DNA of 64,000 bases from a virus, in IMG/VR virus record IMGVR_UViG_3300030447_000342. One strand, given 5' to 3'. This document shows, piece after piece, positions 4,686-58,941 of the stretch. Made by a program: the position numbers and the translations under genes. The notes under the pieces are model-generated. The model was not told where the DNA came from. It made no database searches and saw nothing but the letters and a program-made list of their open reading frames with translations. Each line of letters opens with the position of its first letter. The first letter of the stretch is position 1.

Positions 4686-5662
4686 GACAGCCTCCCGTCG
4701 TAGAGTTTTTTCCAAGTGTCTTGACCTCTATCGACAGGACTGTCCTTATCGCCAAGCAAATCTTCCTTGTCCCAAATGTATTCAACGTTGACAAACTGCT
4801 TTAACCGCTTGATATTGTGGTCATCCCTGATGCAAACATCCTTGTCAAGGGCAAAAACCACCCTGCACCCAAGGGAGACCAGCAGTTTCATCTGATTCGG
4901 ATTAAGATGCGATGTCAAAATCGCACCAGTGTTGTGTACCCCATATGTATCTGCGAGTAAAACTGACTTACATCCTTCGAAAAGAATGATTTCTCCTTTT
5001 TCCCTGATGCCTTCCATGTTTTCTGCAAGACCATAAATAGTTTTCAGCTCACCCCACGCCATAAAGTAGGTGTATTTACGCAAACCTTTTTCTTTCCATG
5101 CCGGGTCAAGCGTTCTACCACCTACATTTACGATTTTTCCATCTGGATTCCGTATTGGATAGACCAATCTATCCGAAAAGCTGTCGTAGTACACGCCAAA
5201 CTTGTCGAGTGAACCTTTGGATATGCCCTCGCGCTCCCAAACAGCTAATTTGTCCGGTCTTTTTTCATACCGTTCCATATAATCGTCTGGAAGCACAGTT
5301 GATTTTGACTGCTTCTGCACTTTTTTCGGCGGCATAAACCTCTTGGCGACCTCAACTGTCGCCAATTTCTTTCTGGTGACCACATTACCATCGACTCCGC
5401 TGTAATTTTTCAGTTTTTCGATAGCTTCAGCATAACCACACTTGTCGTAATACCGAATGAATGTCAGTACGTTACCGCCGATACCCGATGAAAAGTCGTA
5501 GAATGAGTTTGTTTCCTTACGAACGGAGAAGGAGGGGGTTTTCTCATCTTTGAATGGCGACAATGCCCAATATTCTCCGTTCTTTTCTGTGAACTCTGTA
5601 TATTGCGAGATGTATTCAAGGATATCGACTGATTCAATCAGCTCAGATAGCTCCACCCCCAC
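4676..5662 (-). CDS. DnaG-like DNA primase with a TOPRIM domain and a degenerate zinc-binding N-terminus
   Basis: SPFKDEKTPSFSV matches the DnaG zinc-binding motif CPFHxEKTPSF but the Cys/His are replaced. TOPRIM glutamate in ILFEGCKSV and DxD in VVFALDKD. Confidence 0.7.
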   Translation of the reverse strand: MGVELSELIESVDILEYISQYTEFTEKNGEYWALSPFKDEKTPSFSVRKETNSFYDFSSGIGGNVLTFIRYYDKCGYAEAIEKLKNYSGVDGNVVTRKKLATVEVAKRFMPPKKVQKQSKSTVLPDDYMERYEKRPDKLAVWEREGISKGSLDKFGVYYDSFSDRLVYPIRNPDGKIVNVGGRTLDPAWKEKGLRKYTYFMAWGELKTIYGLAENMEGIREKGEIILFEGCKSVLLADTYGVHNTGAILTSHLNPNQMKLLVSLGCRVVFALDKDVCIRDDHNIKRLKQFVNVEYIWDKEDLLGDKDSPVDRGQDTWKKLYDGRLSWR

Positions 5663-18908: not shown

Positions 18909-18954
18909 TCATCAAGCGCCTTTCAAAGCCTTGTGGCACAAGTGATTCAAGCCA

Positions 18955-23907: not shown

Positions 23908-24224
23908 GAGTAGCCGGGGGTTCGGCTAATTGTCTGTCGAGTATTCCTTTTATGGAATCCGCGCTAATTCGAAATGATGTGCATCCAATGCTGTTAAATT
24001 TATCTACGATGGCTTCGTCAATAAAGTCATCACATTGCCCCTCATCTGGGACTTCAAACCTGCACACTTTTTTGTGTAAGCATTTATCACATAACAATTA
24101 TCCCACCTCTTCACTGTAACCGCTTTCCGCATCGGTCGTTTTTCTAACTCCCTCAACCGATGTGCATAAGCATTGGTCGTAAACCAGAACTCACGAGCGT
24201 TGCTTGCAAAGCGAGTGAGTAAAA

Positions 24225-24250
24225 GGAAAAAACCGCCCGCGTAGCGGGCT
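24225..24250 (-). terminator. Rho-independent terminator on the minus strand
   Basis: On the minus strand: GCCCGC tac GCGGGC followed by GGTTTTTTCC. Confidence 0.55.
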
Positions 24251-24349
24251 TCTGGTTTACGAGCATAGTGCCGAATTCTTACTTTTGCCTTTGGCGAAAA
24301 GCTGCTGAAGGAAATATGTATAACAGCAAATCTACAAAGCGGTTGGTCG

Positions 24350-39934: not shown

Positions 39935-40216
39935 TGAACTCGCCTCCGGTTCTCAATTTGCCGACCGCTTTCCGCATGGGGCGTGATTGTTACAGAAGCC
40001 CCATGTGCACAAAGTGACATTTTTAGCAAGCAATTTCCGGGTTATTATTTTTATTCGCTGAATAAAAATTATAACCTCGGAAATGCGAGGCTAAAAATGA
40101 AGAACTCAAATCTTTTCTTCTGCTTTAAGCGAGAAGATACTACACGTTTTGCTGAGACATATGTATGTAGTCAATCTTCAAAGCGGTCTTTATCACAGCG
40201 GTTATCCGCTTATGTT

Positions 40217-41278: not shown

Positions 41279-41355
41279 TGGTCTGGGTGAGAGGACTCGA
41301 ACCCCCGACATCTTGCTCCCAAAGCAAGCGCACTACCATCTGTGCTACACCCAGA
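41279..41355 (-). tRNA. tRNA-Pro (anticodon UGG), CCA encoded
   Basis: Cloverleaf parsed by hand. Anticodon loop TTTGGGA closed by CTTGC/GCAAG. T-loop TTCGAGT. 3' CCA. Confidence 0.8.
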
Positions 41356-41383
41356 TATAATGGTTTTGTTTCCGAACACACAC

Positions 41384-41444
41384 GCACTACTGATGGGTTC
41401 GAACCATCCTCACCATAAGCATCGCCATCAATGCTTAGTAGTGC
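41384..41444 (-). ncRNA. Aberrant 61-nt tRNA-like element: acceptor stem and T-arm present, only one internal arm, no CCA
   Basis: GCACTAC..AGCA[ttgatggcga]TGCT..GATGG TTCGAAC CCATC..GTAGTGC. Too short for D-arm plus anticodon arm. Confidence 0.3.
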
Positions 41445-41482
41445 GTGCCGGGGCAGAAAGGAAAACGGATATGTCAGTCCGT

Positions 41483-41558
41483 TGGAGCTGGTGACAGGGC
41501 TCGAACCCGCAACCCAGTGAGTACAAATCACTTGCGCTACCAATTACGCTACACCAGC
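41483..41558 (-). tRNA. tRNA-Thr (anticodon UGU), CCA encoded
   Basis: Anticodon loop TTTGTAC closed by AGTGA/TCACT. Acceptor GCTGGTG/CACCAGC. 3' CCA. Confidence 0.8.
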
Positions 41559-41602
41559 GTGCACCCTCGTCTTTCCGAGGTGTCAGCTTTTAGCTAAAAG
41601 GC

Positions 41603-41671
41603 TGCTGATGACTGGACTTGAACCAGCGGCTCGCACTTCCGGTGCTGCTCTACCAACTGAGCTACATCAGC
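41603..41671 (-). ncRNA. Aberrant tRNA-like element with a truncated anticodon arm (4-bp stem, 5-nt loop), 1-nt variable region, no CCA
   Basis: Normal acceptor GCTGATG/CATCAGC, D-arm GCTC AGTTGGTA GAGC and T-arm GCTGG TTCAAGT CCAGT. The anticodon region GCAC cggaa GTGC cannot form a 7-nt loop. Confidence 0.3.
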
Positions 41672-41785
41672 ATAGATACGCCCTGCGCCCGTAGGACTCC
41701 GTGTGCACCCGGCTGTGTCTCTTACAGAGATAACAGTTGAGTGATGAACTAACCGTACAAACGTAAGCATGACCAACAGAGCAGA

Positions 41786-41861
41786 TGGAGCTGGAACTCG
41801 GAGTCGAACCGAGAACCCACGCTGTACGAAAGCGTTACTCTACCAGTTGAGCTATTCCAGC
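41786..41861 (-). tRNA. tRNA-Thr (anticodon CGU), CCA encoded
   Basis: ACGCT TTCGTAC AGCGT anticodon arm. T-arm CTCGG TTCGACT CCGAG. 3' TCCA. Confidence 0.8.
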
Positions 41862-42020
41862 ATAGATGCCATCCTGAAACTATGGCGATGTCATTAACAC
41901 CACCAATACAAACTCACTATGATGGCAGTTTTGATAGCGTGAAAGGAGAATCATGGATAAATCATCGTGGCACAAGGGATTGCAGGGATAGAAAACAAGC
42001 TCTAATGCCGAAGATGATTT

Positions 42021-42095
42021 TGGCAGGGGCAGTAGGATTTGAACCTACGAATAACGGAGTCAAAGTCCGCTGTGTTACCGCTTCACCATACCCCT
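42021..42095 (-). tRNA. tRNA-Gln (anticodon UUG), CCA encoded
   Basis: GCGGA CTTTGAC TCCGT anticodon arm. D-loop AAGCGGTAA. Acceptor AGGGGTA/TGCCCCT. Confidence 0.75.
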
Positions 42096-42213
42096 GTATC
42101 TGCAGGCTCATGCAGCGGCGTCCCGCCAAACCAACCTGTAACCGACTTCCAGAGCAGGCTCTGACGTGTCGTAAAGGCATTTCCTTTAACGCATAATTTA
42201 ATGGTTTCTTACT

Positions 42214-42290
42214 TGGAGCGGCGTACCAGACTCGAACTGGCACCACCGGTTTGGAAGACCGGAGTGCTAACCGTTGAACACCAACACCGC
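42214..42290 (-). tRNA. tRNA-Gly (anticodon UCC), CCA encoded
   Basis: CCGGT CTTCCAA ACCGG anticodon arm. 3' GCTCCA. Confidence 0.8.
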
Positions 42291-42476
42291 ATGGTCGGCT
42301 TCTCGCTTAGATTGTCACACGCTACCGGCAACTACGCTCCGAAAAGTCGTAGCCCCTATTCCGTCAGGTCAAACCGGTCTTGACGCATCAAGACAAGCGC
42401 AGTTTTCAGCAAGCATTTTCATTCTTTGTGAGGTAAGCCGATAATCTCTCACATCAGTTGGGAGCTACCCAACAAC

Positions 42477-42552
42477 TGGCAGGGGTGAATGGATTCGAAC
42501 CACCATCTGACGGTTTTGGAGACCGCTATGTTAGCCATTGCACCACACCCCT
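42477..42552 (-). tRNA. tRNA-Trp (anticodon CCA), CCA encoded
   Basis: GCGGT CTCCAAA ACCGT anticodon arm. Acceptor AGGGGTG/CACCCCT. Confidence 0.8.
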
Positions 42553-42642
42553 TGGCGGAGTGGACAGGACTTGAACCTGCACATCCTTTCGGATTACTCA
42601 CGGTTTAGCAAACCGCTGCCTTACCGTTAGGCTTACCACTCC
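42553..42642 (-). tRNA. tRNA-Ser (anticodon GCU), long variable arm, CCA encoded
   Basis: GCGGT TTGCTAA ACCGT anticodon arm. Long extra arm. Directly abuts tRNA-Trp. Its 5' end overlaps the stop region of the downstream CDS by ~10 nt. Confidence 0.8.
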
Positions 42643-43314
42643 ATCGGGATTACTTTATTATACAGAGCAATAAACTGCTCATTGACCTGCTTGTCCACAT
42701 GATAATGTCCAAAGAACCACCGCTTGAATGTGAGGTCGGAACAAACCCTATCTAAAAAGCTGACCATCGGGTCGTTCTCGTACCAGCTTGCGAGCAGAGT
42801 CTGAACACTCCTTGGCGCACAATGTGTAATTACATAGTCAACTCGCCAATGATTTTGTTCGAGCGCTGCAATCGCTCGTTCCATTTCTTCTCTGGACGGC
42901 ATTTCCTCTTTCCACCATGAGATATGTTCCACGCGATACTCTTTATCAACAGAGCGAGCACCGCCCATGCAGAAGATTTTCTTTCCATCAATCGTGAGCA
43001 CCTGCCCTCTGTCCAGATGATAGATGTCAGGAGCGATTTCACGCACCTTTCCGCCAAATTTGTCAATCAGCGGGAACTGGTAGAGCATATCAAAGTTCTC
43101 ATGGTTGCCATCAATCCAAAGTGTCGTGAAGTTTTTCGCTGTCAGCCAGTCTTGCCACCACATCTCTCGATGCGAACCGTCCCAGCAGAGTCCAAAATCG
43201 CCACATATGATTACGAAATCATTCTTCGTCAATTCCTTTTGTTGTGGGAACTTTGTTGTATTAAGCTTGGCAATATCAATGTTTGCGTGTGTATCTCCAG
43301 TGACATAAATCATG
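42633..43314 (-). CDS. Calcineurin-like metallophosphoesterase
   Basis: MIYVTGDTHAN, ICGDFG and GNHEN metal-binding motifs. AAAGGAA RBS before the Met at 43314. Confidence 0.65.
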
Positions 43315-43579
43315 CTCAGTTCCTTTCTCATCTGCAGTCCATATGTATATTCTGTTCTGGTCTCTTCGTTTATCTCCTGTAGCGACGGGATTTAGATGAG
43401 CTGAAAGCGAGTTCAAATCCCAAGCGGCGATGATGAAATCATTGGGAGACAATGGGTTCGACAGTCGCTCATCGGATGGAGATGACAAGACATCCCGAAT
43501 AGTTTTAATGAGCTGTACAGCGAGCTTAGGCGCCTTCGCAGCAGGCTGCGGGCGGGGAATTGTGCTGTCCAGCAAAGTG

Positions 43580-43630
43580 ATACTTCAGCCTTTGGCGTGA
43601 AGCACATTCCTTACGAAATGTTATTCACTG
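43580..43630 (-). repeat. Copy A of the conserved two-hairpin RNA-like motif, ~300 nt downstream of the RT gene
   Basis: Minus strand: CAGTGAATAA-[ACATTTC GTAA GGAATGT]-GC-[TTCAC-G-CC AAA GGC TGAAG]. A GNRA-tetraloop hairpin followed by a GCC/GGC-capped hairpin. Confidence 0.6.
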
Positions 43631-43735
43631 CAAATGATAATTTGATTATCCTGTAATCTACATTGAGGTAGCTCCCTACGAGGAGGAGCTCCGGCACCCA
43701 GTGACTGGCGTGCGACATCTTTTGGTCGTCTCGTT

Positions 43736-43762
43736 GAATCCATTGTGGCACAATGGATTCAA
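43736..43762. other. Perfect 12-bp hairpin with a 3-nt loop, inside the structured non-coding region between motif copies A and B
   Basis: GAATCCATTGTG gca CACAATGGATTC. Confidence 0.5.
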
Positions 43763-43861
43763 GTGATTCGGGCTGCTCACCGGTGGTTCGCAGCCTCGAA
43801 GGATGACTTGAGTCTGCAGGTGAATGCGCCTCCGGGGAGGTTTTCCTCCCTATCAAGTTGT

Positions 43862-43912
43862 TACTTATGCCTTTGGCGATAAGCATTGCTTTCGCAATTA
43901 TGCATTACAGGA
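43862..43912 (-). repeat. Copy B of the two-hairpin motif, 20 nt downstream of the RT stop codon
   Basis: Minus strand: CTGTAAT-GCATA-[ATTGC GAAA GCAAT]-GC-[TTATC-G-CC AAA GGC ATAAG]-TAACAA. Confidence 0.6.
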
Positions 43913-43932
43913 TTGCGGGTTATTTATAGACG

Positions 43933-45069
43933 TTACCGCAGGTCGTCCTTCATCATGCGGATTACATCCACATTCATTTTCTTGTTGATGTAAGCTACAA
44001 TTGCGTCGATGGTCTCTTTTTCGACCATACGATAATAGCTATGCAGACCATACATTACCTGTACATCATTCCGCTCCCAAGCGACACCATTGTTCTTATC
44101 TGTGATGTAATTGTACAGCATTGACTGGAACTGCTTTTTCTTTTTATGACCGACCGTAATCTCGTTGTCCTTATTCAGCATAACGCCAAGATTCCAGTTG
44201 CGCCCCGCTGATGAACCATACCGAGTCTTGCTTGCATTGATTGTGAATGGGGCACCAAAACTGCTCAATGTACTTACTACCAGCTCTTCAACAGAGCGAA
44301 CATCAAAATCATACTTGGATGAAATAATGAAGTCATCCGCATATCTGGTATAAATGAAGCTCTGTTTTTCAAAATTACGGAGCGTATTCGACAGTTTGAA
44401 ATCAACCGGAATCATCATTACGTTTGTGATGAGCGGTGAAATTGGGGTGCCCTGCGGTAGCCCACCATTTAAGAACGCTAACGACATAGCTGTCCGCAAT
44501 GCTGCCTCGCCCTGTGGCTCTTTTACAATCTCACTAAAAGGAAAAACCATCGAGAACATTGAGATGGCATAATCCAATGTTGTGCTGCCAAAAAAGTCGT
44601 GCAGGTCAAGCTTTGCGAACCATTTGCTGCTGTTCTTCTGGTGACGCTTAACCGCATCGACTGTACTCCGCTTCTTTACATAAGCAAACGCGGCAGTATG
44701 ATAGAGTGCATGGAAATCATCCTCGAAAATCGTTTTGAGTCTTCTCAAGGCGTCCATCAGCTCTGCCTTTGGCGCATCGATTCTACGAAGACCACCAGAT
44801 TTCTTTGGGATGTAAAAGGTCTCATACAACTCGCTCCGTTCCTTTGCACGAAGCTCTGCTGTATCGTTATTAAATCGCACGAGTTTTCCGATTAAAGCTT
44901 CAACACCAATCTTGCTGGAAAAATGTTCACTGACATTTTCGACCTCGTATGTTCTTGTGTTTGCAATATTGGCATTGACAACCGGAGGTGTCTGATAGTT
45001 TTGAAACAGGTACTCTTCCAGTGTCATCTGATGATAAATCGGTGACTGCCTAACAGTGATATAGACCAT
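43933..45069 (-). CDS. Reverse transcriptase. Retron/group-II-like RT motifs, no maturase or endonuclease domains, and no DGR-type SQ motif.
   Basis: FYIPKKSGGLRRIDAP (RT motifs 1-2). AYVKKRSTVDAVKRH (region 2a, NAxxH-like). LDLHDFFGS (motif A). LPQGTPISPLITN (motif B', QGxxxSP). YTRYADDFIISS (motif C, YADD). FTINASKTRYG and NLGVML (motifs 6-7). AAGGAGG RBS. Confidence 0.8.
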   Translation of the reverse strand: MVYITVRQSPIYHQMTLEEYLFQNYQTPPVVNANIANTRTYEVENVSEHFSSKIGVEALIGKLVRFNNDTAELRAKERSELYETFYIPKKSGGLRRIDAPKAELMDALRRLKTIFEDDFHALYHTAAFAYVKKRSTVDAVKRHQKNSSKWFAKLDLHDFFGSTTLDYAISMFSMVFPFSEIVKEPQGEAALRTAMSLAFLNGGLPQGTPISPLITNVMMIPVDFKLSNTLRNFEKQSFIYTRYADDFIISSKYDFDVRSVEELVVSTLSSFGAPFTINASKTRYGSSAGRNWNLGVMLNKDNEITVGHKKKKQFQSMLYNYITDKNNGVAWERNDVQVMYGLHSYYRMVEKETIDAIVAYINKKMNVDVIRMMKDDLR

Positions 45070-45095: not shown

Positions 45096-45104
45096 ACTGT
45101 AACC
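45096..45104. repeat. Short inverted repeat ACTGTAACC, just upstream of the RT start, complementary to the CGTTACAGT segment of motif copy C (a1/a2-like)
   Basis: rc(ACTGTAACC) = GGTTACAGT versus CCGTTACAGT at 45429-45438: 8 of 9 nt match. Confidence 0.3.
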
Positions 45105-45388
45105 TACATATGTCTGCTGCTTCCCAGAATTCCTAAGTCTGAAGACTACGTCGTCCCTGTGGGAGGTGGTGCGAGCTCTTGCAAGATGCGAGATTTTTTT
45201 TCTTTGATTTCATTGCGACTGAAAGCATGAGTCTGATGTTAGCACATTTCGTCCTTGTATCGAAGATTTGGCGAAAAGTGCTTGACATTTGGTTTGCTTT
45301 ATGGCGTGATGCTGCCGACCCGTGGCAGCCGGTTTGCTTTCAGGGTTCCACCGCGTCATCCTCCGGGGGTCATCCTCCCGACAATTTG

Positions 45389-45439
45389 TTACTTTAGCCT
45401 TTGGCGTAAAGCTCTCTTACGAGAAAATCCGTTACAGTC
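45389..45439 (-). repeat. Copy C of the two-hairpin motif, ~320 nt upstream of the RT start
   Basis: Minus strand: CTGTAAC-GGATT-[TTCTC GTAA GAGA]-GC-[TTTAC-G-CC AAA GGC TAAAG]-TAACAA. Confidence 0.6.
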
Positions 45440-45441
45440 TG

Positions 45442-46288: not shown

Positions 46289-46966
46289 TTAAAACGCATC
46301 CAGCAGCGGCTGGAATGCGTCACAAATAATCAGCTTATTCAGCCCCTTGCCCCTGATGTACTTGACGAAGTTGCTCACACCCAGAGCACAAATCACTCTG
46401 ACCGTAGTGACAACACCAAGCGTAATGCCGCAAGCTGAGACTGGAGTTTCTTCCGCCGCCTCATCGTGTGTAAAATTCATGGAGTTGAGGAGGTCTTTCT
46501 TCATCTTGTAGTCAGACCAATCAGCAGCATAGTGCTGACCAGCCTCCAGCAGAGTTCTGAAATCAAACATCGCCTTTACATACGGATTGTCGAAGTGTTT
46601 CTCAACAATCTTTTTTCTCAGCTCGATGTTATCAACGCACAAGAACACATAGCCGGATAACTGCTGCCCGTTCCACCCATCCTTGTAAAGCTTCAGGTCA
46701 TCCTTAACATCAGGATTGATGTCGAAAAGAATATCCGCCAATGCCTCGACCTTAGAGCGCCCAATGTCCTGCTGACGGAAAATCTGATTTGCCAGATTGT
46801 GCGGACTTACTGTGTCCATATCCCACAGTGCGATGTTCGTGAGTCCTAAGCGAACCAGTAGCTCCGCAACCGTCGCGCCGACAGAACCACACCCGACGAT
46901 ATGGATTCTACAATCAACCTTCTCGGGCTGGAAATATTCATAGCTCTTTGACAGGTCAATAGCCAT
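46289..46966 (-). CDS. E1-like ThiF/MoeB-family adenylyltransferase
   Basis: Rossmann motif RIHIVGCGSVGATVAELLVRLG. LWDMDTVSPHNLANQ (D.D.V..SNLNRQ-like). Confidence 0.7.
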   Translation of the reverse strand: MAIDLSKSYEYFQPEKVDCRIHIVGCGSVGATVAELLVRLGLTNIALWDMDTVSPHNLANQIFRQQDIGRSKVEALADILFDINPDVKDDLKLYKDGWNGQQLSGYVFLCVDNIELRKKIVEKHFDNPYVKAMFDFRTLLEAGQHYAADWSDYKMKKDLLNSMNFTHDEAAEETPVSACGITLGVVTTVRVICALGVSNFVKYIRGKGLNKLIICDAFQPLLDAF

Positions 46967-46967
46967 A

Positions 46968-47900
46968 TTACTTACCTCCTAAGTATGCATAAGGGTCGTA
47001 GTCATCTTCGTCTTCCCAGCCATGCATTGATTCTTGGCAGGCATTCTGTCCATGCCAACCAGCGCCAATTCTGGTTCTGGGTTTCTCTCCCTCGTTCTTT
47101 TTACCAGATGACTTATCCTTGTTTTCTTCTTTCTTACTGTCCTTCTTGTCGTCGGACTTACCTGCAAGTGGATTGTACGGAGTACCAGCCGGAGCTCCCC
47201 TGTATCCCTGATTGTAGTAACCGCCGTATCCGCTCTGACCGCCATACGCATAGGACTTTGACTTCACCATATCCTTCGCGTTTTTGATAAACTCATCAAG
47301 TCCTTCATTCTGACCGATAATCTTGACCGTGATATCTTTATCCTCAAACATCACGTTCTTCTTGAGGTCATAGATTTTATTTGTGCTTGCAAATGACTTG
47401 TTCCAAATCATAAAGATGTAGAAGTCATTATCGCCAAGCATCCCGAGGATTTCCTCTTGATGATTGAGGTCAACAGAGGATGGAGACGTACCCATATTTA
47501 CATGAGAATGTCCCTGCATATAGATGTGGTTGAAACGCTCATCTTCGATGTTTTCCTGAATCCACAGAGCATATTTCTCGGTGTCCATCTCAACCGTTGC
47601 GCCGGTTACCTCCTGCGGATAGACAACGATGTCATCGATGACATACTCGTCAAGCGATTCATCTTCAGTTCGACGTGCGACACCATGCCATGCGACCTCT
47701 TTATCGAACTCTTTGATAAGCATAGTCATCTTTGCCCACGCCTCTGCGCTGAAGTAAACTACTGCCTTTCTGTCACCACATGAGAACGCTTTGGTAAAAG
47801 AAAGCTTTCCATCCGAGAGCTTTGTAAGTGACAAAGCCTTCTCAAAATCTTGACGGCACTCATCAATGAGTTCCTGCGTCAACTTAATTGGTCTGCTCAT
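46968..47900 (-). CDS. JAB/MPN (JAMM) metalloprotease-domain protein with a low-complexity G/Y/K-rich C-terminus ending ..YLGGK
   Basis: JAMM motif HIYMQGHSHVNMGTSPSSVDLNHQ (H-x-H-x7-S-x2-D) with an upstream Glu in AWHGVARRTEDE. Confidence 0.65.
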   Translation of the reverse strand: MSRPIKLTQELIDECRQDFEKALSLTKLSDGKLSFTKAFSCGDRKAVVYFSAEAWAKMTMLIKEFDKEVAWHGVARRTEDESLDEYVIDDIVVYPQEVTGATVEMDTEKYALWIQENIEDERFNHIYMQGHSHVNMGTSPSSVDLNHQEEILGMLGDNDFYIFMIWNKSFASTNKIYDLKKNVMFEDKDITVKIIGQNEGLDEFIKNAKDMVKSKSYAYGGQSGYGGYYNQGYRGAPAGTPYNPLAGKSDDKKDSKKEENKDKSSGKKNEGEKPRTRIGAGWHGQNACQESMHGWEDEDDYDPYAYLGGK

Positions 47901-49377
47901 TTTGCGCCTCCTCCGTCTGCTCATCCTTTGCCTCCTGCTCATCAAGCCATCTAATTGCTTCGTTCGGCTTTACAACGCGACCATCTGGCAACTCAATACA
48001 ACGACTGACCGTGTTATTTGACCACATGGTTCTCATAAACTCGCCCATAACTGCACTGTCGCCGAAGTTCAGACTCTTACAGGACGCAATACACTGCTCA
48101 AGTGCACCGATATAATTTCGTTTTCTCAGCAGTTCATTGATAGTCCTGCTGTAATTGCCCATGCAATGATAACGGTCAATATGCGTATTAGGCATATAAC
48201 CATCAAATGTGTAATCAGAAAAATCACCAGTCTGCGCAGAAACACTACCATTCAGGTCGAATCTATATGCTGCGCAAAAGCGGATTCTAAGCCGAGGATT
48301 TTCACTTACGAAAATCTCCTGCATCAGCTTCTGCATTTTCTCTGAAGCTGCCGCATTGTGACCGTTGCCACCATCCGGTCGATACACATAACTGCTTCTA
48401 TTGTTGATTGCTCGCTCAGCCATATCTCTGTCAAAGTATTCAAGGTAGTCTTTAACCGAGAAATACATATCCGTATTGCTAACATGAGACAGGACAAGTC
48501 TGTTGTTGCAGAGGAAATAATCCATGATTTCAGAGTCTCCACCGCCCTCTGCAATTCTTTGCTCAAGTCCCAACAATCTGATGCACTTGTCATTGCGGCG
48601 CGACAGATACGCGCCGATAGAATCATTGAGTCGCTGAATCTCCATGTCAATAGATTGGATTTCATTGCGAACAGTATCACATTCGATGCGCTCATATCTG
48701 GTTTCAAAATCACCCAGTAACTGACGAATCCGCGCTGTTCTGAAATCATATCCCTCGGCAAGCTTTGCAATGCACTTCTCATAGTTTGCTGAATTTGTTT
48801 CTCGCAAAGATTGCATCAATGCAAGCTCATCTTCTGTCAAACCATCATCCTGATTCAGATACCACGGCATGAATGCAAGAATAGATACCTGAAGATAATG
48901 CATTTTCTTAACATCAAGATTGTCAACGAAGACAATCACCGACTTCTTGTCAGGGTTGATATAACAATCAACATTGAATGACTTCCGATAAAACGCTTTG
49001 ACCTTATCAAGACGGTGATACTCTGGGTAGATAGAAGTAAACTTGTCCTCCACAATCTGCATACAAGCCAGATTGCTATTTTGGTCAGCATTGAAGCTAT
49101 GAACTATGAGCGCACCGCTGGCATTCATTTGATAACTGCTACAGATAGCACTAACCGCACGTTCTGCTGGAACGTTACGGATAGTGTTCCCATCATAATT
49201 GGTCGAACCGAAAGTCAGGTAAACACTTTCGTCCTCTTTGATTCGAGGTGCAACCAGTGCACGAAGCGTTGAAAGGAACGAACAGTCATTGCCAAAATAG
49301 CTTCCGGTAATGTTCTGAAAAAAGCTATTAGCCGCCTCTGACGTAAACGGTGTCGATGTAATGCTTGTCTTGAACAC
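47884..49377 (-). CDS. Hypothetical protein (497 aa), first gene of the JAB / E1 / 268-aa / RT string
   Basis: Long ORF, no motif recognised. Overlaps the JAB gene start. Confidence 0.5.
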   Translation of the reverse strand: MFKTSITSTPFTSEAANSFFQNITGSYFGNDCSFLSTLRALVAPRIKEDESVYLTFGSTNYDGNTIRNVPAERAVSAICSSYQMNASGALIVHSFNADQNSNLACMQIVEDKFTSIYPEYHRLDKVKAFYRKSFNVDCYINPDKKSVIVFVDNLDVKKMHYLQVSILAFMPWYLNQDDGLTEDELALMQSLRETNSANYEKCIAKLAEGYDFRTARIRQLLGDFETRYERIECDTVRNEIQSIDMEIQRLNDSIGAYLSRRNDKCIRLLGLEQRIAEGGGDSEIMDYFLCNNRLVLSHVSNTDMYFSVKDYLEYFDRDMAERAINNRSSYVYRPDGGNGHNAAASEKMQKLMQEIFVSENPRLRIRFCAAYRFDLNGSVSAQTGDFSDYTFDGYMPNTHIDRYHCMGNYSRTINELLRKRNYIGALEQCIASCKSLNFGDSAVMGEFMRTMWSNNTVSRCIELPDGRVVKPNEAIRWLDEQEAKDEQTEEAQNEQTN

Positions 49378-49403: not shown

Positions 49404-49488
49404 TGGTGGGGAATATCGGATTTGAACCGATACGGCATACGCCAACAGAACTTAAATCTGTTGTGTCTTCCAATTCCACCAATTCCCC
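49404..49488 (-). tRNA. tRNA-Leu (anticodon UAA), long variable arm, CCA encoded
   Basis: ACAGA TTTAAGT TCTGT anticodon arm. Extra arm GGCGTATGCCGTATC. Confidence 0.8.
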
Positions 49489-49530
49489 ATGAAAAGAGCC
49501 GCCCCATGAAGGGCGGCTCTAATCTAAAAC

Positions 49531-49758
49531 TTAGGCGTTGTCCGCCTTAACGACATTCAGCAGGAAGCACTTCTCGGTAATGCCGAACTGCTGGAAGGTC
49601 TTATCGAGGTCGCCGGGGTTCAGAGAAGAACCATCGAGGTGCATGACACCACGAGTGTAATCAACGCCGTTTGCCTCAAGGCAGGAGCGCAGGGTGGTAT
49701 TCTCATCGATGATGACAGCCTCACGCTTAACATTGTTGCCAACAGTAACCTTAATCAT
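49531..49758 (-). CDS. Hypothetical small protein
   Basis: 75-aa ORF between tRNA genes. Confidence 0.35.
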   Translation of the reverse strand: MIKVTVGNNVKREAVIIDENTTLRSCLEANGVDYTRGVMHLDGSSLNPGDLDKTFQQFGITEKCFLLNVVKADNA

Positions 49759-49831
49759 TATGTATTCTCCTTTTATTCGTTTTTTGTTTTTTGGGTGGTG
49801 GGGCGGCTATGCCGCCCCGTTGCAGTGTCTC

Positions 49832-50230
49832 TTACTGAGCGACAGTGATGTTGCTCATCACGGTTGCCTTCTCAGCCGCAATCTCTTCGAGAACAGTGGG
49901 GAGCTTCTCTTCGAGCTTGTTGAGGTTGATGATGGCAGCGCCGAGGCGGTCAGCGACCCAATCCTTCACATCGCCGGTAACACCGTCGAGGAACAGGGTG
50001 ATGCACGCCAGCTTGTCATCGTCACGGGTCTCGGAGCCGAAGGATGCGCCAACTGCGTTGATATTGCCTGCACCATGAGTGGTGCCGACACCGAAGATGG
50101 GCTCCTTGCCATCCTCGCCGCCCTTCAGGACGAGCTCCTTGGGACGATACTTCTCGATGGTCTTGATGTCCTCAAGCTTCATTGCGGAAGTGACGACGAC
50201 TGCGTCGCCTGCGATAACGATTTTTGCCAT
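49832..50230 (-). CDS. Hypothetical protein
   Basis: Probable start MAKIVIAGDA with an AAGGAG RBS. GC-richer segment. Confidence 0.4.
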   Translation of the reverse strand: MAKIVIAGDAVVVTSAMKLEDIKTIEKYRPKELVLKGGEDGKEPIFGVGTTHGAGNINAVGASFGSETRDDDKLACITLFLDGVTGDVKDWVADRLGAAIINLNKLEEKLPTVLEEIAAEKATVMSNITVAQ

Positions 50231-50404
50231 GTGTATGTACTCCTTGATTTCAAATGTACCCCTATTAGTTCGTCTTACGACTATCCGCCCACACCACGAG
50301 GAGGTTGGAGCCATTGTGGACATAAAACCACTGAAGCAACTGCCCCAGTGGTTATGGTTTTATCTTGCACCACTTCCGTGGTGCTGATACTTTTGATACA
50401 CAGA

Positions 50405-51064
50405 TTAGAAACTGAAAGCCGGGGCGACGCCACAGGAACTCCTTGCGCCGTTACGGTCCGCGCCGCCGTTCGCGCCCACACCGCAGAAGGCGCCGCTGAT
50501 GCCGTAACTAGGAGAACGCAGCATAGTGTACTCAGCGGAACCATTACGCTTCTTGCCCCAAGGGACATCTTCTTGCCGGTAATATTCGTACCAATGACCT
50601 TCGCCCGGTGCCGAATAGATGTTCCGTCCAAAGGTTTCTTTTTCAGACTTAATCCAAAACTTGCACTCCGTTTCGAGCAATTCGTTCGCTCCGTCATAGG
50701 TGTTTGCAGTAAGCTTGATTACTGGTTCGACCACCTCAAGAATCTCGTCTGGCATGAGCTGGTAAATTACGCCATCTTCGTCGTTCATCTTATGGAACAG
50801 CTCTGTTGCACCCCAAGAGCCTCTGTTTGTGTCGTTGCTATTCCAACGATGCCGGTTTGGAAGGCAGTCAACCATCTCCCAAGTTAGTGGGAGGATACGA
50901 CCACTTTTTGTAACATCGTGTTTGAATCCAATGATACGGAACTGAACCAGTGTATCGTCTTTTAATCTGACGTTTTTGAAATCGCCTAATCTAAGGAAGT
51001 CGGGTGCCATATCCCCAAGCCCCTTCAGCGAACGCCACGGCATATTATCCAAACATTCAGGCAT
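50405..51064 (-). CDS. Hypothetical protein
   Basis: 219-aa ORF. Confidence 0.45.
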   Translation of the reverse strand: MPECLDNMPWRSLKGLGDMAPDFLRLGDFKNVRLKDDTLVQFRIIGFKHDVTKSGRILPLTWEMVDCLPNRHRWNSNDTNRGSWGATELFHKMNDEDGVIYQLMPDEILEVVEPVIKLTANTYDGANELLETECKFWIKSEKETFGRNIYSAPGEGHWYEYYRQEDVPWGKKRNGSAEYTMLRSPSYGISGAFCGVGANGGADRNGARSSCGVAPAFSF

Positions 51065-51092
51065 ATGTTACCTCCGTCCATAATCATTTAGT

Positions 51093-51182
51093 TGGCGGGG
51101 AGTGTAGGATTCGAACCCACGGACGGCTTTCACCGCCAACGGTTTTCAAGACCGCCACCATAAGCCACTCGGTCAACTCCCC
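51093..51182 (-). tRNA. tRNA-Ser (anticodon UGA), long variable arm, CCA encoded
   Basis: GCGGT CTTGAAA ACCGT anticodon arm. Acceptor GGGGAGT/ACTCCCC. Confidence 0.8.
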
Positions 51183-51199
51183 AAATAAAAAGAGACGGG

Positions 51200-51862
51200 T
51201 CATTCGCCCGTCTCAGTCTCAGTTTCATCTTCTTCATCTTCCGGCTCATCCACGCCATCGATATCATATTCATCATACGGAAACTCTGTAAAGACTTCAC
51301 AGCCGCTTTCTTTTTCCGTTATAATCATCGGTCGATAGATATGGAAACCGTAATCTTCTGAAAGCTCTTTCAAAAATCCATCAAGGATTTCATCGACAGC
51401 TTCATAGCCATACGCTTCTAAGATATTTGTTCCGTCGTTGTCACCCTCCTGCAGCGCGATTGCGAGGAAATCTGCCATAGCCAAACGGAGTTCATCATCT
51501 CGCTCATACATAGCATCCTCTATGTCCATCCATGTTTCATCGCTTTCTTCTTTGCCGCCATCTGGATTATCTCCCGGAACATACTTGTTGTCTGTAATCA
51601 CAACAGGAAAGAGATAGCGTGTGTAGAATTTCTTCGACACCGCTGTACAGTCCTCCTCACTCACGCAAGGTTCTTTGTACTCAATTTTTTCGTTGCCCTT
51701 TGCAACAGCCAAAACTGGGAGGTCGTTTTCCTCGGTAAGATACACGGCATACTCCGTGTCGGTGTTCTCAGCAATGAGAACCATTTCTTTGTTCAAACGT
51801 TTTCTGCTTGCTTGGAAAAACCCCCATACTGCATCAGCGGGGATATGAATATGAACTCCCAT
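51200..51862 (-). CDS. Hypothetical protein with a highly acidic C-terminus
   Basis: Start MGVHIHIP with an AAGGAGG RBS. The track's longer ORF reads through the tRNA-Lys gene and is rejected. Confidence 0.45.
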   Translation of the reverse strand: MGVHIHIPADAVWGFFQASRKRLNKEMVLIAENTDTEYAVYLTEENDLPVLAVAKGNEKIEYKEPCVSEEDCTAVSKKFYTRYLFPVVITDNKYVPGDNPDGGKEESDETWMDIEDAMYERDDELRLAMADFLAIALQEGDNDGTNILEAYGYEAVDEILDGFLKELSEDYGFHIYRPMIITEKESGCEVFTEFPYDEYDIDGVDEPEDEEDETETETGE

Positions 51863-51888
51863 AAGGAACCTCCTTATATATTTGACTT

Positions 51889-51964
51889 TGGTACTCCCGA
51901 CGAGGCTCGAACTCGTGACCCCAGCATTAAAAGTGCCGTGCTCTACCAACTGAGCTACGGAAGT
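51889..51964 (-). tRNA. tRNA-Lys (anticodon UUU), CCA encoded
   Basis: CGGCA CTTTTAA TGCTG anticodon arm. T-arm CACGA GTTCGAG CCTCG. Confidence 0.8.
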
Positions 51965-52135
51965 ATATTGACCGGCTATTACGGTATGCCCAGAAAGGTG
52001 GACACGCTTGAGTTCCACAAACAGTTTTGCCCGCAAAAGATGGAGGTGAATATTTGATGGAGGTGTTTATCTTAATGCAGGTACGAAGAAAGGAACTTAC
52101 AAATGAACGAAGGACACGCGCATGGCAAAACTGTC

Positions 52136-52219
52136 TGGTGCAGGATAAGAGACTTGAACTCTTACGCCGGAGGCAGCGGGACTTGAATCCGCCGTGTCTG
52201 CCAATTCCACCAATCCTGC
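52136..52219 (-). tRNA. tRNA-Leu (anticodon CAA), type II with a long variable arm, CCA encoded; A:C mismatch closing the anticodon stem
   Basis: GCGG(A) TTCAAGT (C)CCGC anticodon arm. Extra arm CTGCCTCCGGCG. T-arm AAGAG TTCAAGT CTCTT. Confidence 0.65.
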
Positions 52220-52226
52220 ATATTTC

Positions 52227-52427
52227 TTATATCCAACCAGCTAATACTGCGATTGTTGTCACACTCAAAACGGTTAGTACAATGTTGTCATACACTATTC
52301 GGTTGTGGAGATTTTTGCTTGCTCGCTCAACCTTTCTTTGGAGTCGCTCAATTTCTTCGTTTTTGCTTTCGCGCTCAAATTTGTATTTGCACCACGCTTC
52401 GCCTGATATGAAGTCACCACGCTCCAT
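52227..52427 (-). CDS. Hypothetical small protein with a C-terminal TM helix
   Basis: 66-aa ORF. Confidence 0.3.
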   Translation of the reverse strand: MERGDFISGEAWCKYKFERESKNEEIERLQRKVERASKNLHNRIVYDNIVLTVLSVTTIAVLAGWI

Positions 52428-52455
52428 GTTTATACCTCCTTACCAAAGTCATGTT

Positions 52456-52782
52456 TTATCGAATGCCGTCTACCCACAACTCTAACGTGCGACGATTTGC
52501 GTACTGTTTACAGAGTTCTTCGATGGATACACCATGTGCCTTTGCATCCGTTTTCATTGCCGTAAACTGGTCTCTGTATTTTTTGACCATCTTTTCAACG
52601 GCAAGAAAATGCTCTTTGTCTTTAGGATAGAAGGCAATATCATCAAGGCAGACACTGCTTATATCTCCCGTGTGGCAAATTACTTTCCAGCAATTTTTGC
52701 ATGGCGCATCATCTATGCTCACCATATGATTGATGCAGTCACTGCAGTGGACAACCACTCCATTTACCTTAATTGGTTTCAT
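52456..52782 (-). CDS. Hypothetical Cys-rich protein
   Basis: 108 aa; CSDCINH and CKNCWKVICH cysteine cluster. Confidence 0.4.
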   Translation of the reverse strand: MKPIKVNGVVVHCSDCINHMVSIDDAPCKNCWKVICHTGDISSVCLDDIAFYPKDKEHFLAVEKMVKKYRDQFTAMKTDAKAHGVSIEELCKQYANRRTLELWVDGIR

Positions 52783-52804
52783 TGGTTGCTCCTCCTTTTA
52801 TGAG

Positions 52805-52880
52805 GTGGTGGAGATAGCCGGACTCGAACCGGCGACCCTCTGCTTGCAAAGCAGATGCTCTCCCAGCTGAGCTATACCCC
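52805..52880 (-). tRNA. tRNA-Ala (anticodon UGC) with the G3:U70 identity pair, CCA encoded
   Basis: GGGGGTA TA GCTC AGCTGGGA GAGC; TCTGC TTTGCAA GCAGA; acceptor 3' TATCTCC A CCA. Near-identical architecture to bacterial tRNA-Ala. Confidence 0.85.
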
Positions 52881-53007
52881 CATACTTTACGGCATAAAAC
52901 CCAAGTCAACTCCGCCGTTTGATGTTCCCCACACTAATACCTCAATGCTTCGGATTGCATCAATAAGCCTTGCGCTCCGATACCCAAGGAATGAACATCG
53001 TTCCCAC

Positions 53008-53087
53008 TGGCGCCGAGAGCCGGTCTTGAACCGCCATTATAGCCTGATGTTGACAGCGCTATGTTTTACCAATTAAACTACCTCGGC
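53008..53087 (-). ncRNA. Aberrant tRNA-like element: normal acceptor, D- and T-arms, but an extended 8-bp bulged anticodon stem with loop UCAACAU; CCA encoded
   Basis: GCCGAGG TA GTTT AATTGGTA AAAC; ATAGC-g-CTG [tcaacat] CAG-GCTAT; T-arm GGCGG TTCAAGA CCGGC with one G:G mismatch; GCCA end. Confidence 0.3.
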
Positions 53088-55605: not shown

Positions 55606-56019
55606 TTACACCTCCCGCAATTTTTTATGGGAGAAGGTTTTACCTCAATAGGTTCGGGCGCGACTCCGAAAACTATTTTCAACTCCAACCTTCCAAGGAT
55701 GCACTTTCATGTTTGTTTTCAACTCCCACGCGGTGGCAGCATTTCCTCCACTTGAACACTTTCGTAGTCCCGCACGCCCCGTAATGGCTTTCAGATTTTG
55801 GATGCCTCCTCACTTACCTTCACCAATACAGGGTCTAAGCGTTAGGTGAGTTGTGCGCACAGGGTTCACATCCCATTAAACCCACCCCACGGAATCGTAC
55901 CGTGCCAGCCTTACGACATCGAACCTCGCTTTAGCGTGAACCAAACCCGACCAACAATCAGGTAGATTCCGCCATACCCATACCACCGGAGTTCAAGGAA
56001 CCCCGGAAAACCGAGCTGT

Positions 56020-58099: not shown

Positions 58100-58649
58100 T
58101 TTGAAATGCCCCTTTCACAGATTTTTTGGTGATAACAAAGTTTATCACTCAAGAAAGCCGCTGAAAGATTTCTCAGTCAGCGGCTCTATCAATGATAAAC
58201 TCAAGGACACGGCGGCGGCTCTGCACTCGGCTCATGGGGCATACCCTGCCCATGCAACTATTGCAGTATCGAACGCCGCTCATATCATTTCTAATACTCG
58301 CGTCGATTGAGTGAAGTTCTGCTTATTCACAATACTCAACCAAATCCGACTTTCATATCTATATGCCCTCATTTTCGGCTCCTCGGAGCACAACACCCTT
58401 GGGTGGAAAACTCGGACGATACTACTAACCATCAGAGGTCTTTTTCGTATAGCCATCAGTTATGCAAGCCGCACTTAGGTTCATAGGCACAAACCTCCGG
58501 GGATTTTCACTATCTCGTACCATGAGCCTAACTCTCATGCACCGGCGACGCCTTTGATAGCAAAGGTACTCACATTGACACTCACTCAATGGTGTGTTGG
58601 CTTGCCATACCCGAAAGTGGCGGACATCTCCGCTTGTATTTCGTGGCTT

Positions 58650-58835
58650 GCCGTGCGGGGTCTTGCCCTGCACCCTTAACCGCAAGGGGTGTACCCTGTG
58701 GCGGCGGGGCGGCGGGGTCTTGCCCTGCACCCTTAACCGCAAGGGGTGTACCCTGTGGCGGCGGGGCGGCGGGGTCTTGCCCTGCACCCTTAACCGCAAG
58801 GGGTGTACCCTGTGGCGGCGGGGCGGCGGGGTCTT
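58650..58835. repeat. Three perfect tandem copies (plus a partial fourth) of a 57-bp GC-rich unit
   Basis: Unit GGGGTCTTGCCCTGCACCCTTAACCGCAAGGGGTGTACCCTGTGGCGGCGGGGCGGC repeated head-to-tail. The core AACCGCAAGGGGTGTACCCTGT recurs once more at 60040-60061. Confidence 0.8.
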
Positions 58836-58941
58836 GCCCCCCCCTTGCGCTTGCCGTGTGCCGTCCTTGCGGTTGCGTGTGCGGTCTGTCCAAAAAGAAA
58901 GGGCGGGGGCGTTGTGCCCCCGCCTTGTGCGGTCTGCGTAT

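Follow-up and report, generated by a model that had tools for sequence, protein, structure and literature searches.

Multiple structured RNAs accompany a retron-like reverse transcriptase in an uncultivated phage and are its putative templates

The 64,000-nucleotide stretch of DNA analysed here (the window) is from IMG/VR virus record IMGVR_UViG_3300030447_000342 and belongs to a large uncultivated phage of at least about 100 kb, the relatives of the window being IMG/VR viral contigs of 60-137 kb. On its minus strand it encodes a reverse transcriptase (RT) of 378 amino acids with a YADD active site (43933-45069; Pfam RVT_1 9.9e-20), and directly 3′ of the RT gene, whose stop codon is at 43935-43933, lies the 600-bp region (43332-43932) that is the subject of this work. 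A sequence-only reading had described this region as gene-free and dense in hairpins and had suggested that it could encode one or more noncoding RNAs (ncRNAs) for the RT or be an origin or packaging signal. We find that the region consists of two tandem, covarying structured RNAs, units A and B, on the RT strand, which bears out the first suggestion as far as the RNAs themselves are concerned. From their anatomy and position, A and B are probably members of a family of at least five units that serve as template and scaffold RNAs of the adjacent retron-clade RT. The origin or packaging signal found no support, the units being multi-copy, dispersed, strand-specific and provided with G-U pairs.

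Units A and B are 270-310 nt long and, together with short spacers, fill the entire region. Unit A (43648-43913, minus strand; 53.6 bits, E 3.5e-8 with R1, a covariance model of the 5′ module of the units) begins with a1 at 43913-43904 (AUCCUGUAAU), followed by an invariant G at 43903, the stem-loops SL1 (43898-43885, with a GAAA loop) and SL2 (43883-43864), and a box, UAACAACUUGAU, at 43863-43852. A GGGAGG/CCUCCC hairpin and a central hairpin at 43762-43734 (CCAUUGUGCCACAAUGG core) occupy the middle of the unit, which ends with AUGUAG (43663-43658) and a2 (43657-43648). Its minimum free energy (MFE) fold is closed by a1/a2 pairing (z -7.9). Unit B (43329-43636, minus strand; R1 52.1 bits) is built in the same way, with a1 at 43636-43627 (CAUUUGCAGU), the G at 43626, SL1 with a GUAA loop, SL2 and a box ending at 43571, a central hairpin CCAUUGUCUCCCAAUGA at 43455-43439 and a2 at 43338-43329. 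Its fold (z -2.7) is also closed by a1/a2, in a helix of 10 bp including one G-U pair, and the two arms compensate between clades (UUUGCAGU/ACUGCAGA versus UUUGCAAU/AUUGCAAA).

The stems listed by the sequence-only reading (GGGATTT/AAATCCC, AGCTCC/GGAGCT, GGCTGC/GCAGCC and GGAGG-TTTT-CCTCC) are all present, and the hairpin density it had remarked on is above chance: the MFE of the minus strand is -202.5 kcal/mol versus -159.2 ± 5.6 kcal/mol for dinucleotide shuffles (z -7.7), and the plus strand also folds better than its shuffles (z -6.5). The perfect hairpin it had given as 12 bp exists but is longer, at 13-14 bp, with fully (100%) complementary arms at 43734-43747 and 43749-43762. The two motif copies that it had placed in the region (43560-43604 and 43841-43885, 71% identical) are likewise real and turn out to be the heads of complete units, of which it had missed further copies lying outside the region; a third copy of the motif is found at 45369-45413, upstream of the RT gene. 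On the minus strand within 43332-43932 no sigma-70-like promoter and no intrinsic terminator was found.

That third copy belongs to unit U (45096-45440, minus strand; R1 51.6 bits), which forms the 5′ leader of the RT gene, the usual location of a retron msr-msd. It has a1 at 45440-45431, the G at 45430, SL1, SL2 and the box extending to 45380, AUGUAG at 45109-45104 and a2 at 45103-45096; its fold is closed by a1/a2, and the unit ends 27 nt before the RT start (45069), with the ribosome-binding site (RBS) in between. The MFE folds of units A, B and U taken individually all contain SL1 and SL2. Unit D (39964-40187, minus strand; R1 23.6 bits, E 0.018 with filters off) is situated about 4 kb from the RT gene, just past the first transfer RNA (tRNA) cluster, and comprises a1 ACCGCUUU at 40187-40180, the G at 40179, SL1, SL2 CUUCUCGCUUAAAGCAGAAG, AUGCGG at 39977-39972 and a2 AAAGCGGU at 39971-39964. 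Unit C (24118-24344, minus strand; R1 35.5 bits, E about 1e-4) lies some 20 kb from the RT gene, with a1 AACCGCUUU at 24344-24336, the G at 24335, SL1, SL2 CUUUUCGCCAAAGGCAAAAG, AUGCGG at 24132-24127 and a2 AAAGCGGUU at 24126-24118. Both are closed in their folds by a 9-bp a1/a2 helix (z -6.9 for D and -4.6 for C). They share one layout, from a1 ACCGCUUU through G, SL1, SL2, box and AUGCGG to a2 AAAGCGGU, and their 3′ ends are a repeat of each other (family D14). By these sequence and fold comparisons A, B, U, C and D are paralogous units, so that the window holds at least five. A home-made structure descriptor had also found the three local units, but it gave about six false matches per shuffled window strand and was for that reason dropped in favour of R1.

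The common order of the units is, in the 5′ half, a1 (8-10 nt), the invariant G, a NAUW linker, SL1 (often with a GNRA loop), a spacer G, SL2 and the box UAACAAnUUG, and, in the 3′ half, a purine-rich stretch or hairpin, 150-250 nt of variable sequence (the cargo), YAUGUAG, and a2 complementary to a1. In SL2, stems of 5 bp and then 3 bp are separated by a bulge of one nucleotide and capped by a triloop (CUUNNcGCCaaaGGCNNAAG). The central hairpin CCAUUG-N5-CAAUGG, of which the perfect hairpin in unit A is a copy, follows the G at a distance of about 150-170 nt; 47 of 62 instances of this motif, in 91 loci, fall inside downstream units. Outside the detected units, a palindrome related to the unit A central hairpin (TTGTGGCACAA core) occurs at 18922-18951 and 41956-41985 (plus strand), in one case between two tRNA genes; its core pattern shows no statistical enrichment in the window. 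The palindrome TTGTGNCACAA was considered as a genome-wide site and discarded, as it is not enriched in the window (6 found versus 3.5 expected).

Covariation was assessed in a structure-guided alignment of 30 units, from loci whose RTs are 57-100% identical to that of the window. Of the cells in SL1 and SL2, 99% are paired and 132 are double-changed, and none of 500 shuffles and no slid register came near this. The closing helix, in 29 units, is paired in 87% of cells, with 90 cells double-changed and 11 of 12 pairs compensatory, a score that none of 500 shuffles reached; since the SL1 and a1/a2 alignments are partly structure-fitted, these pair counts lean toward structure. Column pair 5/33 was not part of the 7-nt seed by which a2 was located, and it pairs in 28 of the 29 units, with four pair types. 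Moreover RNAalifold recovered a1/a2, SL1, SL2 and the central hairpin from an unfitted MAFFT alignment of ten unit A orthologues. Compensating a1/a2 combinations include ACUGUAAC/GUUACAGU, AUUGUAAC/GUUACAAU, ACCGUAAU/AUUACGGU, UAUGCAAU/AUUGCAUA and ACCACAAU/AUUGUGGU, and neither the G that follows a1 nor the G that precedes a2 varies in the 29-30 units compared; the former is also present in the most distant clade. On our own reading of the sequence we rejected SL2 and the box as a Bacteroidetes-type promoter, given that the stem covaries and that the spacing is unlike TAnnTTTG. The units are almost certainly real structured RNAs.

Dense inverted repeats and the better-than-shuffled folding of both strands would also be expected of an element acting as DNA, such as a replication origin, a packaging signal or a recombination site. 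About 29 cells, or about 7% of the paired ones, are G-U and fit the RT strand only; on the other strand they would be A-C, which argues for an RNA read on the RT strand and not for a DNA site. The R1 search of 70 related phage loci returned 135 units, and all 135 are on the RT strand. Moreover an essential single-copy site would not be expected in five dispersed copies per 64 kb, with a copy number that differs in close relatives, and in one locus, L058, a unit has been lost without loss of viability. This locus has no downstream units, and at its positions 5180-5215 a part of a1 (CATTTGC) is joined to the final ~35 nt of a unit (...CTATGCAG-ATTGCGAA); since part of a1 and the 3′ end are kept, the loss was by internal deletion. 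We regard a DNA-level element as highly improbable.

The same search showed how regularly the units accompany the RT gene. In nearly every locus a unit lies upstream of the RT gene, where a2 precedes the RT start by about 25-35 nt, and in most loci one to three more are found within 4 kb downstream, giving a copy number of 1-4 near the RT (within 4 kb, 70 loci). In the most distant clade (43-50% RT identity) R1 fails, and the same a1-G-linker-SL1-SL2-box...a2 layout can be seen by eye before the RBS of the RT gene, for example as CUAAUAAA-G...UUUAUUAG. The type of SL2 is specific to each clade and common to the units of one genome. Scaffold and cargo evolve at different rates: where two phages share 94-95% DNA identity in the RT gene, they share 89-100% in the 5′ modules and 100% (unit U) and 95% (unit A) in the 3′ ends, whereas the cargo of U and A is just 63-76% identical and diverges beyond the flanking coding genes. 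Apart from the shared SL2 and a short palindrome, nothing else in the window matches the cargo of the units, and the cargo shows no complementarity to other parts of the window.

The open reading frames (ORFs) of the region also deserve comment. The sequence-only reading had stated that no ORF of more than 70 codons had a plausible start, which is not literally correct: there is a 91-codon ATG ORF (43611-43886, minus strand), covering nearly all of unit A, and a 99-codon TTG ORF. The longest stop-free frames also span 0.82 of unit length, versus 0.71 in shuffles. One could thus imagine small proteins of 91 or 99 amino acids, or a hidden ORF encoded by complementary DNA (cDNA) as in DRT2. The 91-codon ORF is intact, however, in just 3 of 17 loci with a 99-100% identical RT (L001, L008 and L052); in near-identical phages the lengths of the units are 1-2 nt apart and thus shift the frame; and 43332-43932 has no protein family match in Pfam. 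From these three observations we conclude that the region is non-coding, so that it was rightly called gene-free in substance. Likewise no conserved ORF is found in the cargo, a frame stays open through the tandem unit repeats in only 3 of 32 units, and the comparison with homologous phages gave no conserved protein-coding frame. A coding function is accordingly a very remote prospect.

The identity of the RT bears directly on what the units might do. Its best NCBIfam match is retron_St85_RT (2e-51, profile positions 5-288 of 289), PADLOC returns retron RT_II-A (6.6e-46) with retron RT models making up all of the best 25 matches listed, and the closest solved structures by sequence are the RTs of retrons Ec83, Ec78, Ec67, Kva2 and Ec86 (E 9e-20 to 6e-10). 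These profile, PADLOC and PDB matches place it in the retron or retron-like clade. Retron RTs carry NAxxH in region X and VTG in region Y, the H and the G being the most conserved residues (Mestre et al. 2020). Here H and G are kept and are invariant in 18 family members of 57-100% identity, as is YADD. NCBIfam Drt2 matches only weakly (6.9e-11 over 84 residues). The protein has an N-terminal extension of ~70 residues (RT residues 1-75; 44845-45069, minus strand) that is not in retron RT structures and is highly conserved in the family (MxYITVKQSPxYHQMTLEEFLF...NTRTYE). The RTs of loci L053, L054 and L055 have an insertion of ~77 residues between the conserved PKKSG and RxIDAP (alignment residues ~95-170).

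The RT family is large, with more than 5,400 homologous proteins at E ≤ 1e-10, and its members come from human, ruminant, rabbit, horse and termite gut assemblies. Family-specific peptide patterns matched metagenome-assembled genomes and viral contigs and no isolate genomes, and a blastn search of the locus against 50,697 GenBank phages gave no match. The matches obtained with tblastn were an unannotated fecal contig, 41% identical, and beyond it just retron-type RTs at 23-29%. In 12 of 122 loci, all in the distant clade (L103 5656-6117, L104 5705-6154, L119 5959-6408, L106 3214-3654 and eight other loci), the RT gene and units have a canonical RNase H gene (Pfam 1e-43 or better) directly beside them; none is detectable in the 64-kb window. 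An RNase H beside the RT in this clade fits an RNA-DNA hybrid intermediate.

In retrons a conserved G provides the 2′-OH from which cDNA synthesis is primed, on the nucleotide adjoining a2 (Mestre et al. 2020). The units have the geometry of a retron msr-msd, with a closing helix, an unpaired G 3′ of a1 and a motif 5′ of a2, and we therefore propose retron-like priming and copying. Each unit would be transcribed on the RT strand and closed by a1/a2 pairing, which would bring the unpaired G beside the nucleotide 5′ of a2, after YAUGUAG. SL1, SL2 and the UAACAAnUUG box would then form an msr-like module bound by the RT, and the RT would prime, most likely from the 2′-OH of the invariant G as in retrons, and copy the cargo backwards from a2, so that the product would be a different small single-stranded DNA for each unit. 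The template would be trimmed by RNase H, from the RT-adjacent gene in the one clade and supplied by the host otherwise. RT binding, the priming site, cDNA production and the biological role we infer from sequence. That the units are substrates of the adjacent RT seems likely to us; for retron-type priming at the invariant G, which is argued from analogy, we see the chances as evenly balanced. As for the cDNAs, a role as anti-defence or takeover DNA decoys would be plausible and would fit the fast turnover of the cargo, though this is speculation. A precedent exists in phage RTs whose variable arrays of ncRNAs serve as templates for short cDNAs (10.64898/2026.09.22.753630), and stand-alone msr-msd-RT cassettes are also known (Mestre et al. 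2020).

Several observations weigh against the units being retron-like templates of this RT. At 225-350 nt they are long for a retron ncRNA, and units C and D are far from the RT gene and have lower R1 scores. The RT scores under the NCBIfam retron cut-offs and is missing the exact NAxxH and VTG motifs, with AVKRH and NLG instead (aligned to the Ec83 RT, which has NAKIH). Domain and defence-profile searches found no known retron effector among its neighbours. The partial structure-fitting of the SL1 and a1/a2 alignments belongs here too. Finally, all loci are from related phages with conserved gene order, and the co-occurrence of units and RT is therefore not independent evidence of function.

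Some of these points would suit structured RNAs that have no part in reverse transcription, such as regulatory small RNAs, stabilisers of untranslated regions, operon processing signals or binding sites of another protein. Units C and D, 20 kb and 4 kb from the RT gene, have terminator-like hairpins, and co-orientation with the RT is weak evidence because the minus strand carries every gene in this part of the genome. Such roles would leave unexplained why the retron geometry of closing helix, G and template-start motif is kept down to 43% RT identity, why a unit is nearly always found directly upstream of the RT start, and why a conserved scaffold is combined with fast-changing cargo. We consider them improbable.

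A different possibility is that the units are templates of the RT but work as in the UG27 systems of phages and not as in retrons, in which case no branch would form at the invariant G. UG27 is a class 2 UG/Abi RT of gut phages with a predicted ncRNA (Mestre et al. 2022, PMC9226505). Its variable arrays of roughly 150-nt units template cDNA hairpins of 50-100 nt (Li et al. 2026 preprint, 10.64898/2026.09.22.753630), and cDNA activity needs the RT (YSDD) and two accessory proteins (10.64898/2026.09.22.753630). In both cases a phage RT is accompanied by a variable number of structurally conserved, sequence-diverse units that are gained and lost in close relatives, with extra units in intergenic positions, and the cargo is without obvious complementarity to genomes; a conserved central hairpin, variable copy number and the lack of complementarity to the rest of the window are seen here too. 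We set the present family apart by motif, unit length, active site and neighbours, using the published descriptions of UG27. The UG27 units have AUCN7UANAG and UUYA motifs on either side of a central hairpin. Of the two, AUCN7UANAG was looked for and is not a conserved feature here, with 7 matches in the window versus 6.0 expected; a single one falls in unit B, and units A, U, C and D have none. Units are 225-350 nt instead of about 135-167 nt, and the active site is an invariant YADD and not the YSDD of the five tested UG27 systems. The RT, of 378 amino acids compared with the canonical 380-450 of UG27, finds its best matches in retron RTs and not in the class 2 UG member DRT2. Beside it no conserved domain-free pair resembling sORF/bORF is evident, its neighbours having ThiF, DUF6273, Metallophos or RNase H domains. 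The closing helix and invariant G are retron-like. UG27 occurs in prophages of cultured gut strains, whereas the peptide patterns revealed no isolate-genome relative of the present family, which turned up in metagenomic contigs alone. A UG27-like mechanism thus appears unlikely. Two weak fecal tblastn matches were considered as UG27 and ruled out, being larger YADD fusion proteins.

After unit B comes a gene for a calcineurin-like metallophosphoesterase (42633-43313, minus strand; Pfam Metallophos 8.8e-14, PHROG metallo-phosphoesterase 1.1e-40), whose start, judging from the RBS and conservation, is most likely the ATG at 43313 (MIYVTGD...) and not 43331. The downstream gene is a different one in other clades, and the phosphoesterase gene is a neighbour of the units that need not belong to the system. 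Just upstream of the RT block are adjoining genes for a ThiF/E1-like adenylyltransferase and a weakly JAB-like protein (46289-46966 and 46968-47945, minus strand). The first matches Pfam ThiF (1.9e-24) as well as the PADLOC E1-E2 and 6A-MBL cap2 models, and the second has a weak PADLOC JAB match (0.0026). ORFs of similar size lie upstream of the RT gene in most loci, with ThiF confirmed in L037 (2803-3474) and L104 (2843-3700). The pair may be a ubiquitin-like conjugation or counter-defence module, and a link to the RT and plain synteny are both possible. Thirteen tRNA genes (Rfam) were found in the window, with two clusters, at 41282-42642 and 49407-53087 (minus strand), flanking the RT block. 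Three RAGATH RNAs, RAGATH-36, RAGATH-4 and RAGATH-16, score above the Rfam gathering thresholds at 55751-55907, 58189-58319 and 58495-58566 (minus strand), and adjoining them at 58655-58839 is a perfect 57-nt tandem repeat in three overlapping 71-nt copies (family D1).

Retrons are familiar as bacterial defence systems that use a single template, and as tools for genome editing. An RT of the retron clade that is carried by a phage, lacks an effector and has several natural templates would put the same chemistry to a different use, and it is this predicted arrangement, a retron-like RT with its template RNAs as a phage-borne, multi-unit array lacking an effector, that would be new. This leads us to speculate that uncultivated gut and rumen phages have turned a retron into a multi-template machine, in which changing, dispersed units would yield different small DNAs during infection, their cargo acting as decoys or sensors against host defences; we put this forward tentatively, giving it somewhat less than an even chance. 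If it were true, engineered retron arrays would have a natural counterpart in this family, and phage cDNA arrays would have arisen independently of UG27. Together with UG27 it would suggest that repertoires of small cDNAs are a recurrent strategy of phages, and the RT family is abundant in gut phages. A conserved scaffold (a1-G, SL1, SL2, box and a2) with replaceable cargo is moreover the property wanted for multiplexed production of DNA in cells. Editing with retron arrays has been published (PMC10370050).

With regard to other known systems, a search of Rfam 15 returned nothing at gathering score in the unit regions and, at E up to 10, chance-level eukaryotic matches only. A group II intron was rejected, there being no Rfam intron match and a TIGR04416 score of 85.7 against a cut-off of 300. 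The diversity-generating retroelements of phages are similar in having a phage-encoded RT and an adjacent non-coding template; the present system differs in that it has no template/variable repeat pair and no cargo homologue in the window and that its RT is not of their type, and we discarded it as a member of that class. DRT2 (UG2) and other defence RTs with an upstream ncRNA also combine a stand-alone RT with a structured ncRNA, which in DRT2-type systems is the template. Here, in contrast, the RT similarity is weak, no conserved frame is open through tandem repeats, the units are multiple and the context is a phage. In the literature we found no published natural phage retron with several ncRNAs. 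Retrons themselves (Ec86/Eco1, Ec83, Ec78/Eco7 and St85/Sen2) share with the present system the RT matches, an ncRNA directly upstream of the RT gene on the same strand, a1/a2 inverted repeats that close the RNA, a conserved G directly 3′ of a1, and stem-loops followed by a variable template region. Differences lie in the absence of a recognisable effector or toxin gene, in the degenerate AVKRH and NLG motifs and the N-terminal extension of the RT, and in the length of the units, their conserved central hairpin and their lack of an Rfam match. The host here is an uncultivated phage and not a bacterium or a known prophage retron, and a single RT is accompanied by several units, in tandem after its gene and dispersed, with at least five in 64 kb.

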